This document shows positions 1-4,639 of a stretch of DNA of 64,000 nucleotides, piece after piece. A model generated the notes under the pieces. The model was not told the origin of the DNA, did no database searches, and saw nothing but the letters and a program-made list of their open reading frames with translations. The position numbers and the translations under genes are program-made. Source of the stretch: an uncultured Campylobacter sp. (GTDB lineage: Bacteria > Campylobacterota > Campylobacteria > Campylobacterales > Campylobacteraceae); the NCBI GenBank assembly GCA_963530195.1, contig CAUSCW010000004.1, forward strand, positions 5,937-69,936. Reading direction: 5' to 3'. Positions within the stretch are counted from its first letter, which is position 1, and every line of letters begins with the position of its first letter.

Positions 1-1468
1 GCTGATTTGTTATTATAAATAAATTATCTACAATATTTGCATATAGCTTTTTTTCTAATATATTCTCAAATTCTTTCTTATTGGTAAAATTTATAAATTT
101 CCTTACAGGCTTCTTATTATTAGGTATTTCATTGTCAAAAATAAGAATGACTGGATTTGCAGCTATGTCTTTTGTTATTTTTTTAAAATACTCAGAATAA
201 TTTACAACTTCTCGTCCTACAAAAAACCTATAGATATTTTGAATTGAATCCGCTCCATCTTTTACAAAATTTAAAAAATATTCAAGTCTCTTTGTTCTTC
301 TTAAAAATGATACTTTAAATTCAAATTTGTCATTACTATTTTTTTTAATCAAATCTGGAAAATCTGCATATAGACTTTTTATCGCAGATTTCAAATACAG
401 TATATCCGTTTTTCCTTCTGTAATAATGAGTGGTTTTTGATTAGCAAAGAAATACTTATAAAAAATAAATTTTTGATATTCTTTTTCTCTGCAATTTAAC
501 TTTTTATCATTATTTTTCTTACAATCGTTATGTTTATTATCATTAATATTGATTATATTGTTATACCGATCAATTTGATTAATAAAAGCAAATCTTCCTT
601 CAAGTTGATTCATGGTGGCATCTTTGCCATCAATATTAAAGGATTTATTCTTATAAAGAGAATTGGCCATAGCTCTTGTATATTTACAATAACTATGATT
701 TATACTTATTTTTTTATTAACAACCAATCCAGTAACTTCTTGTCTTGAATCTTTATAGAAAAGCCTAGTCTTCTTCTGGTTAATGCAAAAGCCCGCCTTT
801 TCTACTTCTTTCGAAATACACAATAAAAACTCATTATATATATTCAAAAAATCTTTATTATTGGTAGAAAATGTTAAATCATCTGCGTATCTTGTATAAT
901 CAAGCTTATATTTTTTAGCAAGTTTTAATATTCGCATATCAAATATATTACATATTATGTTTGATATAATTGGAGAAGTCGGGGCTCCTTGCGGAAGAGA
1001 ACCCTTGTAACAACATAATTGAGCTATAATAATTGCTATATCTTTTGGGATTCTGAAATTTATATTTTTTTCAAAAAACCCAACAACTCTACCGAAATGA
1101 AAGCTAGCGAAAAAGTCCTTTAAATCTATATTTAAAACAAACCGCTTATTTCTGTGGATTCTAGCATTAGTTATTATGCTTTTGCCTTTTTCAAAACCGT
1201 GAGAGATATTAATTTTTATATTTTCATCTTTTTTGATCTTATTTTGATAGTTATACAGCTTATTCATTAGTCTATTTTGTATTTTTTTTAAAATCTTCTT
1301 ATCAGGCGCATTAATGATTCTAGTGCCACCATTCTTCTTTGGTATTTCAAATGTAGTATATAAATTCTCCACTTTAATGTGATAAAGTATGTAGGTTAAT
1401 AATTTAAGTTCAATTCCCAAAAAAACAGCAAAATCTTTTCTTGTTTTTACATCTTTTAAACTAAGCAT
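1..1468 (-). CDS. Retron reverse transcriptase-TOPRIM fusion, Ec67/Eco2 (type I-C) family; 3' end runs off the window
   Basis: Hand translation from ATG 1468 (RBS GGATAG) is open to base 2: MLSLKDVKTRKDFAVFLG...FEIPKKNGGTRIINAP...SHGFEKGKSIITNARIH (retron region X NAxxH, 1168-1154)...IDLKDFF...LPQGAPTSP...YTRYADDLTFS (YADD 889-878)...RQEVTGLVVN (region Y VTG 736-728)...PLIITEGKTDILYLKSA (TOPRIM, 421-404)...ILIFDNE. Confidence 0.96.
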   Translation of the reverse strand, partial: MLSLKDVKTRKDFAVFLGIELKLLTYILYHIKVENLYTTFEIPKKNGGTRIINAPDKKILKKIQNRLMNKLYNYQNKIKKDENIKINISHGFEKGKSIITNARIHRNKRFVLNIDLKDFFASFHFGRVVGFFEKNINFRIPKDIAIIIAQLCCYKGSLPQGAPTSPIISNIICNIFDMRILKLAKKYKLDYTRYADDLTFSTNNKDFLNIYNEFLLCISKEVEKAGFCINQKKTRLFYKDSRQEVTGLVVNKKISINHSYCKYTRAMANSLYKNKSFNIDGKDATMNQLEGRFAFINQIDRYNNIININDNKHNDCKKNNDKKLNCREKEYQKFIFYKYFFANQKPLIITEGKTDILYLKSAIKSLYADFPDLIKKNSNDKFEFKVSFLRRTKRLEYFLNFVKDGADSIQNIYRFFVGREVVNYSEYFKKITKDIAANPVILIFDNEIPNNKKPVRKFINFTNKKEFENILEKKLYANIVDNLFIITNQ

Positions 1469-1491
1469 AACTATCCAAAGGAAAAATCAGA

Positions 1492-1605
1492 ATGTGTGGC
1501 AACTCATTATACAAAATAATTGCATTATTGTAAGCATGTAGCAAAGTTTGCCAACATTTTAGTCAACGTTTGCGAAACACAAACACAAAATCTAGCCACA
1601 CATCT
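1492..1605 (-). ncRNA. Retron msr-msd non-coding RNA
   Basis: 9-bp perfect inverted repeat ATGTGTGGC (1492-1500) / GCCACACAT (1595-1603). On the minus strand the 5' arm is followed by TAG (candidate branching G at 1592). Internal hairpins at 1568-1584, 1536-1557 and 1510-1532. Lies 24 bp upstream of the RT start. Confidence 0.88.
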
Positions 1606-1610
1606 TTGAA

Positions 1611-1635
1611 ATTGTAAATATTTTTAGCTTAATTA
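1611..1635 (-). promoter_or_regulatory. Putative sigma70 promoter of the retron
   Basis: -10-like TACAAT at 1616-1611 with upstream TTAAGCTAAAA AT-rich element; would place +1 at about 1605-1604, just before the msr inverted-repeat arm. Confidence 0.6.
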
Positions 1636-2187
1636 ACTATTAAACTCATTGAGTAAAAATTTATCAGTTTAATAAGCTTTTTATGACTTTAGAAAATATC
1701 TTTATGCCAGCCGTATTTTGCGATGGGTTTTTCGTGCTATCTTTTCCCCTTCTACCCCCATATCGGCAATATAATCGTAGCTTTTGATGATTATCCACGC
1801 TCCGTCATATCAAAGACCAAGTCGCTGAGATTTACCAAATAATGCAGTACATGCAGAATCCATCGATATCGGTAAATGTGGTTTCGTAGTCGTTTTAAAG
1901 GATATAAAGTGTATTTCCCGTACCCGAGCGACTATAAGTTATTTCGCCGACTTCATGCACTATGCCCTCATTACTTATGCCAAAGTGCGCGGCGCTCGGG
2001 CTACCGCCTGATATACCGCTTTTGCGAAGGCTGCTTTTGCGTAGAAATTTGGCAGCGCGCCGCGTAAAGATACCGCTCTGCGCGAAATTTTGAAATTTTG
2101 CGTTTTGTAAATTTTAAATTTAATGCGTCGTTTGGCAACTGTCGCGAGACGGCGAAATTTTATAATGTAATAGGCGCCGCTTTTTGA

Positions 2188-2532
2188 ATACGGATAGCCC
2201 GCCACCGCGAAGTAAAATTTAAACCATACGGCGCGAGCGAGGTCGTTTTTGAGCCCGAAGCGCAAAAGGCGCTACAGCACATCAAGGCTTTGGGGCTTGA
2301 GCGGCTAAACGTCTGCATCGCAAAGACGCAGTATAGCTTCAGCGACGACGCCAAGGCGCTCGGGCGAGCGCGCGGCTTTAAGCTTAGCGTTAAAGACCTT
2401 CAAATCCGCACGGGAGCGGGCTTCATCGTCGCCGTCTGCGGCAAGATAATGCTTATGCCGTGGCTGCCGAAGGTTCCTAACGCGCTAAATATGAAGATCA
2501 CGAGCGAGGGGCTCATAAGCGGTCTGGCGTGA
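2188..2532 (+). pseudogene. fhs: Formate-tetrahydrofolate ligase C-terminal remnant
   Basis: YGASEVVFEPEAQKAL...VCIAKTQYSFSDD...GAGFIVAVCGKIMLMPWLPKVPNA...GLISGLA matches the Fhs C-terminus. In-frame stop at 2185, no N-terminal ~440 aa, and conserved MPGLP reads MPWLP. Confidence 0.85.
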
Positions 2533-2949
2533 AATTTTATTTTTTGCGCGTCCATTTTTTTGCGCGCCCGCCTTGGGGTTTAAGCTTAGCTCACCGGCCT
2601 AGTAGCGATTTAGGCTTAGCATTCGTAGGTACTCAGATGAGAGAGCGGAGTAGAGTTACCGATTCGCAAAATTTGGCTGAATTTGCTCGCTTGCGGGTAA
2701 ATTTTAAGCGCGGGATTTTGCGGATCGGCTTTGATTTTTAAAAACAGAGGCGAATTTGACGAGAATTTGACGAATTGCCCATAAATTCTCGCCAAAGCGG
2801 ATAAAATTGCTTGCCTTTTTGGCAAATCGCCACTAATCGTAAATTTGAGATTTTTACGTCAAATTTAGGGGAAAATCGACGTAACGTATTTCGGCGTTTT
2901 TATTGATCAAATTTGCCCAGGAAAGCCAAAAATCCTGCGCGAAACAGAG

Positions 2950-3390
2950 CTAAATTTTAACCTTCTCCCACGTCTCAATCCCGCCTGCAATCTCCTCAAA
3001 AACGCCTGCGATTTCTATATTTTTTACGCTTAAATTTCGCTCGTAAACTACTCTGTCGCGCGTTTTTAGCTTCTTTTGTAAAAAGGCGAATTCATACTCG
3101 ATCTGACCGCGAGCGACGCTGATTTTAGCCAAATTTCGCGCGTCAAATTCGCCCACCTTCGCGGCGTCAAATTTATACCCGCGAGCGCAGCCCTCCTCAT
3201 AAACTTCCGCTAGATACGCATTTATCGCCTCTAGCGCGTTTTCATGCGCGTAAAAGCGGTCGAGCTGCGGGTGATTTTTGTAGCCCTTAGTAAGCCCAGC
3301 CAGCACGTTTTTAGCTAGCAGCGCCTCGCGCCACAGCGCCACGAGCCCCTTTGCGTCGAGATATTTAAAGCTTATCGTCCAAAGTCTCAT
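2950..3390 (-). CDS. Pyrimidine-dimer DNA glycosylase / endonuclease V (DenV-like) family protein
   Basis: MRLW...YLDAKGLVALWREALLA...GYKNHPQLDRF signature. Confidence 0.85.
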   Translation of the reverse strand: MRLWTISFKYLDAKGLVALWREALLAKNVLAGLTKGYKNHPQLDRFYAHENALEAINAYLAEVYEEGCARGYKFDAAKVGEFDARNLAKISVARGQIEYEFAFLQKKLKTRDRVVYERNLSVKNIEIAGVFEEIAGGIETWEKVKI

Positions 3391-3532: not shown

Positions 3533-4639
3533 TCATTGCAACTTGCCTCTGCATAGCACGGGGATCTTTTCTACGACCTCGCCGCCGCTTACGAGGTAGG
3601 CGAACTCGTGCAAATTTACGACGGGGCAGATGTGGTTTGGATAAATTTCGAGCCGATCGCCTACGCGCACGGCGTCTCGCAGCGCTCTGTCGTAGATGAT
3701 CGCATGCTCGTCGTAAACGCCGCTCACCCACACGTCCGTGCCCTTTATGCGTCCGAGCCCGGGCGTTGCCGTAAAGCCCTCGGTGCGCCTTTGCTGCGTG
3801 AGCCCCTTGGCGCCGACGTCGGTGATGATGCGATCCGCCGTAGGTCTGCTGATGACGGTCGTAAGGATGCTCGCGGCGTTCATCGAATAATCGCCGTACG
3901 CCTGCGCTTGCGAGGCGTCCATAAAGATATAGGTGCCCGGGCGGATCTCGGTGACGCCCTTTAAAATTTCAAAATCGTTGATGAGCGAAGGCGTCGAGCC
4001 GATGCTAACGACGCGTGCGGGTAGAGCTAGCTCGCGCGCGATATCCGCAAACTCCAGCGTGCGGCGCTGCGCGGCTAGGTGGATGCGCTCGCATTCGCTT
4101 TTGCAGGCGGCTTTGTAGGAGTGGCCGTCGTGGGAGAATACGCCGCGGAATTCTATATTTTTACAGCCTTTTAGAAATTTTATAAACGCTGCGAAATCCT
4201 GCTTTTCCACAAAGCCCGAGCGGTTTTCGCCCACTTCGATCTCGGCAAGCATGCGGGCCTTCGTGCCGCTGCGCTCAAAGGCGCGCTCTATCAGGCTCGC
4301 CTGCTCTATGCTATCTGCGCCGAAGCTTAAGTTTATCCCTGCGCGCAAAAGCGCGATGATGCGCTGAAATTTCAGCTCGCCCACGATCTCGTTTGCGATA
4401 AATATATCTTTCAGCCCGTTTGCCGCCATGATCTCGGCCTCGCCCGTTTTGGCGACCGTGATGCCCGCAGCGCCGATGCTCTCTTGCAGCTTCGCGAAAT
4501 AGGGCATTTTGTGCGTTTTGGTGTGCGGGCGCAGGCTCACGCCCGCGGCGTCCGCGTAGCTTTGCATCTTTTGCAGGTTGCGAAGCACGATCTCGCGATC
4601 AATCAGCAACGCCGGCGTGTCGATGTCGGATACCCTCAT
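3533..4639 (-). CDS. DSD1/D-threonine aldolase family PLP-dependent enzyme (alanine-racemase fold)
   Basis: TPALLID, LRPHTKTHK (PLP Lys), HDGHSY, SIGSTP, EIRPGTYIFMD, DEH, PNHICP motifs; RBS GGAGG. Confidence 0.9.
   Translation of the reverse strand: MRVSDIDTPALLIDREIVLRNLQKMQSYADAAGVSLRPHTKTHKMPYFAKLQESIGAAGITVAKTGEAEIMAANGLKDIFIANEIVGELKFQRIIALLRAGINLSFGADSIEQASLIERAFERSGTKARMLAEIEVGENRSGFVEKQDFAAFIKFLKGCKNIEFRGVFSHDGHSYKAACKSECERIHLAAQRRTLEFADIARELALPARVVSIGSTPSLINDFEILKGVTEIRPGTYIFMDASQAQAYGDYSMNAASILTTVISRPTADRIITDVGAKGLTQQRRTEGFTATPGLGRIKGTDVWVSGVYDEHAIIYDRALRDAVRVGDRLEIYPNHICPVVNLHEFAYLVSGGEVVEKIPVLCRGKLQ

Follow-up and report, generated by a model that had tools for sequence, protein, structure and literature searches.

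The closest described relatives of the locus analysed here are the type I-C retrons, in which a TOPRIM domain is fused to the reverse transcriptase (RT), and foremost among them Eco2 (Ec67) of E. coli (PDB entries 9LM3, 9I2F, 9I2G and 9S1F). Eco2 is described as a trimer of RT-TOPRIM/msDNA units in which the msDNA cages the TOPRIM domains; the phage endonuclease DenB starts msDNA decay, the RNase thus freed nicks the acceptor stems of tRNAs, and phage protection needs both active sites (PMC12916289). Eight residues (F46, E374, D378, D460, D462, S513, E515 and K562) are reported to be required for defence (PMC12916289, PMC12405507), and full-length Eco2 RT-TOPRIM is non-toxic without its RNA (PMC12405507). 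In the classification of Mestre 2020 (PMC7736814, Table 1), Eco2 belongs to subtype I-C1, while the combination of TOPRIM motifs EGxxD and DxE defines subtype I-C2 (RT clade 8), which stands in that table without any described retron. Members of I-C2 are 97% from Bacillota in the SPIRE survey (PMC13712802), and the Khan census lists four I-C2 retrons, each of them from Firmicutes (PMC10849725).

The locus lies at the left edge of a 64,000-nt stretch of DNA from an uncultured Campylobacter sp. (hereafter the window; Table 1), and the evidence presented below supports its classification as a type I-C retron of subtype I-C2, and not of Eco2's I-C1. An earlier note on this DNA had claimed an uninterrupted minus-strand frame of at least 489 codons with NARIH, YADD and VTG motifs, followed by a TOPRIM motif. 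This frame (1468 to 2) is open at the window edge, with 489 residues encoded inside; read past the window, the contig extends it by 79 codons to a stop about 240 bases outside, and the complete 568-residue frame, including the remaining TOPRIM residues, contains neither frameshift nor internal stop. The same note had the gene as missing from the list of open reading frames. It is indeed absent there, because the window edge cuts the ORF, which runs off base 1; the absence is an artefact, and the protein was already in the databases. The exact 568-residue sequence is present in NCBI, ENA and Logan, and its 90% protein cluster (62 members) holds entries named ‘retron Ec67 family RNA-directed DNA polymerase/endonuclease [uncultured Campylobacter sp.]’. 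As for expression, none of the runs recorded as RNA contains over 5% of the sampled words; the matching runs are contigs of uncertain kind.

Table 1. Features of the retron locus and its surroundings. Plain numbers are window positions; the window corresponds to G000:C4:5937-69936, where G000 is the source genome and C4 the contig.
Feature	Position	Strand	Remarks
Left duplication copy	G000:C4:4945-5071		outside window; real 3' end of His_Phos_1 gene
Non-coding part of insert	C4:5072-5697		626 bp, between left copy and gene stop
RT-TOPRIM fusion gene, type I-C2	1..1468	minus	whole gene G000:C4:5698-7404 (stop at G000:C4:5698), 568 aa
RT catalytic/key positions	residues F40, N101-H105, Y194-A-D196-D197, V245-T-G		NARIH 101-105, YADD 194-197, VTG 245-247
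TOPRIM positions	residues E351, D355, D445, E447, E498, E500, K532		TEGKTD at 350-355; first four coded in window, last three left of it
Retron ncRNA (msr-msd)	1489..1606	minus	118 nt, ends ~20 nt before ATG
a1 arm	1492..1502	minus	
msd	1504..1556	minus	predicted template of 53-nt RT-DNA; 9-10 nt missing near 1516 relative to sister alleles
msr stem-loop	1568..1584	minus	5 of 8 pairs changed on both sides
Predicted branching G	1592	minus	invariant in 18/18 RNAs; equivalent to Eco2 G15
a2 arm	1593..1603	minus	pairs with a1
Decayed 3' end of foreign uvrA	1635..1960	minus	ends approximate; frameshifts and stops; three collinear tblastn pieces, E 5e-6
Right duplication copy	1976..2102	plus	3' end of histidine-phosphatase-family gene
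Spare fhs (formate-tetrahydrofolate ligase) 3' end	2227..2549	plus	right end of outer ~6 kb segment
Pyrimidine-dimer DNA glycosylase (PF03013)	2950-3390	minus	neighbouring gene
Alanine-racemase-fold/D-serine dehydratase-like gene	3533-4639	minus	neighbouring gene

The assignment to type I-C is based on concordant observations: (i) the protein matches NCBIfam NF038237 over its full length (residues 3-567; 641 bits at a cut-off of 450), (ii) in the PADLOC check proposed by the earlier note, RT-Toprim_I-C is the best model (799 bits, 6e-241), with the best type XII (RT-TIR) and type XI (RT-protease) models far lower at 305 and 291 bits, (iii) the chains of the Eco2 structures are matched at E 3e-115, and (iv) an AlphaFold2 model computed from 119 sequences (pLDDT 91.9, pTM 0.85; a disordered stretch with pLDDT below 50 at residues 311-320) aligns in Foldseek with 9LM3/9I2F at a TM-score of 0.83 over 597 columns and 39% sequence identity to Eco2. 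As is characteristic of the type, TOPRIM is fused C-terminally to an RT with NAxxH, YADD and VTG motifs, and upstream lies an ncRNA that has both a1 and a2 arms, a predicted branching G and the msr hairpin. There is no separate effector: the gene is the single ORF of at least 120 residues between the repeats that bound the insertion, and the sole other ORF of at least 70 residues is a 72-residue antisense frame within it.

The eight Eco2 residues listed above align, in the same order, with F40, E351, D355, D445, E447, E498, E500 and K532. All of these positions except E498 are invariant in 119/119 homologs; at position 498, which corresponds to S513, 118 of the 119 have E or D. TOPRIM motif IV (E351-G-K-T-D355) conforms to EGxxD, and motif V (D445-N-E447) reads DxE, as in 119/119 close homologs, and not the DxD of I-C1. 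The earlier likening of the locus to Ec67/Eco2 therefore holds for the type and not for the subtype. With Eco2 the locus shares domain order, fold, RT motifs, the acidic cluster and lysine of TOPRIM, and RNA architecture; it differs in its modest overall identity, in having DxE for DxD and E498 for S513, and in a trimer loop unlike that of Eco2. With the I-C2 retrons of Mestre 2020 it shares the single RT-TOPRIM gene and the EGKTD and DNE motifs (PMC7736814), and differs from that subtype in its host phylum (PMC13712802) and in the predicted length of its RT-DNA.

The RNA preceding the gene is arranged in the order a2, G1592, hairpin, linker, msd and a1, a layout shared with the I-C2 copies of Listeria, Enterococcus, Bacillus and Staphylococcus (L066-L069). 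Considered alone, it folds moderately better than shuffled sequences (z -2.48; 2/200 shuffles as good), and no Rfam family reaches threshold. The structure becomes firm through covariation across 18 homologous RNAs, which come from Campylobacter, Bacillota, E. coli, Proteus and metagenome contigs. Six of the 18 are closely related to one another, and the structure was drawn from the same sequences. In this alignment 96.8% of 342 cells are paired and 13 of the 19 pairs have changed on both sides, with 0/500 shuffles scoring as high and slid controls reaching at most 52%. The RNA model was built from the window ncRNA, so that the window's own score constitutes no test. All six aligned RNAs of this Campylobacter lineage have a single U.U mismatch beside the terminal a2/a1 pair. 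Judged by these compensatory changes, what the earlier note had described as a structured RNA is a real msr/msd.

When the ends of the RT-DNA are placed by analogy with Eco2 (layout from PMC12405507), a product of 53 nt is predicted for the window, compared with 62-63 nt for sister alleles and 61-84 nt for the remaining rows; the same rule gives 65 and 68 nt for two DxD rows, near the 67 nt of Eco2. Short and long alleles differ by a single gap of 9-10 nt, which takes out roughly nt 14-23 of the 63-nt product predicted for the sister allele. Ten genomes of the genus have an assembled RNA, six with the short allele (G000, G019, G025, G029, G060 and G064) and four with the long one (G014, G020, G058 and G074). 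The short allele is likely the derived state, since G162, which belongs to another genus, has the long one. Both alleles retain an inverted repeat that lies at 24-37 nt, counted from the 3' end (no chance control; the sequence is AT-rich), and that by analogy would occupy the zone of the Eco2 three-way junction, located 18-39 nt from the RT-DNA 3' end (PMC12916289). Save for its unusually short predicted RT-DNA, the locus is an ordinary member of a known retron family.

A homolog search returned 2,126 matches at E 1e-100. The best 120 of these comprise two named Campylobacter copies, three unnamed copies at 98%, 92% and 74% identity, and 115 others at 52-59%; 16 of the latter carry an organism name, of which 15 are Bacillota and one is a Weeksellaceae MAG. 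The window protein is ~55-58% identical to the named Bacillota proteins. In quick trees the window lineage falls among Bacillota rows, with the DxD proteins of E. coli and Proteus outside; the backbone is mostly unresolved, so that no donor can be named. The trees contained no reference rows of types XI, XII or other clades; the profile scores (799 vs 305/291 bits) favour type I-C. In a phylum-wide sample, 8/401 genomes lie above the family cut-off, all within the bacterial family of the window: four of its genus, G162, and three of a second I-C2 lineage. Within the genus, 12 of 78 genomes carry the cassette at the same site, whole or in part, and 8 of 78 exceed the cut-off.

The second lineage comprises WP_087576640.1, a C. 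concisus protein named ‘retron Ec67 family’, together with relatives in G228, G244 and G277. Like the window, it exhibits the I-C2 motifs and the same RNA family, and it occurs in the same bacterial family; unlike the window, its proteins (55-56% identical) are encoded at another chromosomal site, next to a CinA-family gene, and its predicted RT-DNA measures 61-62 nt. Whether the two lineages arose from one acquisition or two, an AU test (p 0.78) leaves both histories compatible. The CinA-family gene adjoins the retron in both L089 and L090 (G277 and G228), and in G228 the retron is preceded by a 197-residue tail piece of the 748-residue gene that precedes it in G277. More distant RT-TOPRIM-like fusions, with 34-36% identity over the RT and EGITD/EGETD motifs, are present in other Campylobacterales (L062-L064; G404, G312 and G166); these lie below the family cut-off, give no match to the ncRNA model, and are possibly I-C3. 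The earlier note considered retrons little studied in Campylobacterota. Some are on record, however: the Khan census table includes two I-C3 retrons from Campylobacterales, namely from Arcobacter and Sulfurimonas (PMC10849725), and the C. concisus protein bears its name in NCBI. Among the matches listed by our search of the openly accessible literature, none deals with I-C2 retrons of Campylobacter, with I-C2 defence or with natural msd length alleles.

The insertion that holds the retron measures 2,967 bp, contains a single long ORF and neither integrase nor transposase, and is flanked by two direct-repeat copies that are identical at 118/127 positions. As four of the nine differences lie within 11 bases at the start of the repeat, the real extent of the duplication may be closer to about 115 bp. 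Among the 18 best cassette-free loci tested, 17 present a clean empty site, with one repeat copy joined straight to the right flank; in the exception (G037, L044), the end of the His_Phos_1 gene is followed not by the fhs copy but by a different locus, the break lying at the right end of the same repeat. Composition likewise sets the RT-TOPRIM gene apart (25% GC, 21% GC3) from the three flanking genes (49-59% GC, 55-67% GC3) and from the genome (47% GC), as the earlier note had observed in calling the region far more AT-rich than its flanks. The clean empty sites and the presence of a single gene with its own ncRNA support the view that the system was horizontally acquired and is self-contained.

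Insertion with long target duplication was reportedly first described by Nobusato 2000. A survey by Furuta, Abe and Kobayashi in 2010 documented it for restriction-modification (R-M) systems, including cases in Helicobacter and C. jejuni; most of the species concerned are naturally competent (PMC2853133). The present insertion agrees with those of that 2010 survey in being shorter than 20 kb, in having a direct repeat longer than 30 bp (127 bp) that is single-copy at the empty site, and in carrying no mobility gene; it differs in that its cargo is a retron instead of the R and M genes that the survey required, without a DNA-cutting enzyme known to drive the event, and in that it is nested in a second segment. 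This outer fhs segment is itself bounded by a long duplication (in G012, a 322-bp repeat of 98% identity, 5,963 bp apart). In many genomes of the genus, a DnaJ-like cysteine-rich protein, a Sel1-repeat protein and the His_Phos_1 gene are found between two copies of the fhs tail (L087:3208-9492). The one paper that our literature search returned for long target duplication together with retrons (PMC4978471) does not connect the two in its passages.

The uvrA remnant in the window is 71% identical at the DNA level to the foreign uvrA tail that lies ahead of the same retron (95.5% DNA identity) in G162. There the retron is found elsewhere in the chromosome, bracketed by a duplication of the initial 73-93 bp of the pyrimidine-dimer glycosylase gene. 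The G162 region as a whole (L088:400-7816) is a stack of uvrA, a 207-residue gene without family match, a type II methyltransferase, a fused glycosylase head/uvrA tail, the retron and the glycosylase. Since uvrA tails precede the retron at both sites, it would formerly have stood behind uvrA and have moved at least twice together with that tail. Three other short-allele carriers resemble the window in the retron (98%), the RNA (100%) and the uvrA remnant (99-100%) more closely than in the flanking glycosylase (92-94%) and phosphatase genes (90-92%; two full-length comparisons), which points to recent lateral spread between species. Campylobacter is naturally competent. A Bacillota-type retron would have reached this genus and entered the His_Phos_1 site with no integrase involved; the likely mechanism is recombination in the course of natural transformation, which would have left the long target duplication; later movement between related species would have occurred by exchange in the flanks.

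Comparison of the window gene with seven other copies of its lineage gives dN/dS values of 0.18-0.27 from small counts (against the other short-allele copies, only 11-14 synonymous and 13-14 replacement changes), which indicates that the RT-TOPRIM gene is under purifying selection. Three relatives are broken: G058 (L010/L021) is interrupted around codon 209, where a run of AT dinucleotides has gained four bases, which could be slippage or an assembly error; G244 (L059:1353-1477) has lost the a1 arm of the ncRNA and retains an intact RT-TOPRIM frame; and in G277 the frame is without its first ~42 residues. Some of these broken copies may be assembly errors.

On balance, we consider it probable that the intact I-C2 retron in the 2,967-bp insertion defends its host against phage as Eco2 does. 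An Eco2-like route is the best reading because fold, active sites and RNA layout are conserved; RT-DNA synthesis and ends, trimer, trigger and tRNA target are carried over from Eco2 (PMC12916289, PMC12405507). Accordingly phrased by analogy, the RT would use the msd as template for a DNA of a predicted 53 nt, joined to the RNA at the branching G1592. RT-TOPRIM and its msDNA would then form a trimer in which the DNA encloses the TOPRIM active sites. Cleavage of the msDNA by a phage nuclease would free the RNase, which is predicted to cut tRNA and stop translation. Against this route stand the replacement of Eco2 D462 by glutamate and the Eco2 trimer loop (325-347, R332), which is not recognisably conserved and corresponds to the disordered part of the model.

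It is conceivable, if on the whole unlikely, that the short-msd allele is dead or crippled, the loss of 9-10 nt preventing the msDNA from looping round the fingers and from joining the trimer, so that the cassette senses no phage and only hitch-hikes. The lost nt 14-23 are the stretch that loops round the fingers in Eco2 and hold two of the four DenB cuts (positions 15 and 17; PMC12916289), all other intact I-C RNAs examined (17/18 rows) yield 61-84 nt, and broken relatives have been observed. Moreover, as Eco2 RT-TOPRIM is harmless without RNA (PMC12405507), an intact TOPRIM domain is no proof that the short msDNA works. However, the short msd occurs in 6/10 genus carriers with assembled RNA, whose assembled ORF parts are all unbroken, and the allele has recently passed between hosts that are 6-10% different in the flanking genes; the inverted repeat is kept (again with no chance control in AT-rich sequence), family members vary freely in the length of the msd, and Eco2 is reported to tolerate large msd insertions (PMC12956279).

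We give less credence to an active I-C2 retron with a trigger or output unlike those of Eco2, which might attack another substrate (rRNA, mRNA or DNA), be switched on by binding or modification of its msDNA instead of by cutting, or adopt another oligomeric state. The DxE of all close homologs marks a separate subtype, the position of S513 is acidic, the trimer loop differs, overall identity is low, and the Eco2 paper itself states that the I-C classification may not reflect biology (PMC12916289). Yet the fold of the whole protein and the RNA layout (a1/a2, single msr hairpin, linker and terminal hairpin) match Eco2, and a change from D to E is conservative. Finally, that the locus is no retron defence at all and represents another RT class (group II intron remnant, DRT or Abi) or a selfish passenger is very improbable, since weak profile matches to group II RT (56 bits) and Drt2 (41 bits), both far below cut-offs, are opposed by the full-length I-C profile match above cut-off, the covarying retron RNA, the TOPRIM domain and purifying selection.

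Returning to defence along the Eco2-like route, one may speculate, with considerable doubt, that the 53-nt allele encodes a functional msDNA sensor in naturally reduced form, which has lost the loop that phage nucleases cut first, so that the set of triggering phages changed and selection swept the allele through six species-level Campylobacter genomes. If so, type I-C retrons would be tuned through the length of their msd, and two alleles on genes that are 95-99% identical would already be at hand for testing how trigger range depends on the msDNA cage. As a system the locus adds little, type I-C having been solved by cryo-EM and the protein cluster being already named in databases. Its interest lies in a cross-phylum case of an almost all-Bacillota subtype for which our literature search found no defence test, and in natural 53 vs 62/63 nt msd alleles on near-identical proteins, which offer a direct test of the msDNA part needed for caging and sensing and bear on how short type I-C RT-DNA can be.

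Comparison of the genome with itself revealed 11 same-contig repeats of at least 60 bp within 16 kb. One of them, a 137-bp copy of the nrdA 3' end, brackets a Hachiman pair behind nrdA (G000:C41:13722-17012; L083:2723-6013), with HamA of 311 and HamB of 682 residues at 26-27% GC; this site is empty in two of the 15 genus relatives drawn (G024 and G032). The integrase-free long-duplication route thus carries a retron and Hachiman in one genome, that is, cargo other than R-M systems. Further long direct repeats, of 149 and 103 bp and ~2.7 kb apart, are located at G000:C79:2180-5031 (L085) and G000:C15:1-2891 (L084), respectively; the repeat of L085 encloses a metallophosphoesterase and a 497-residue P-loop protein without notable family match.
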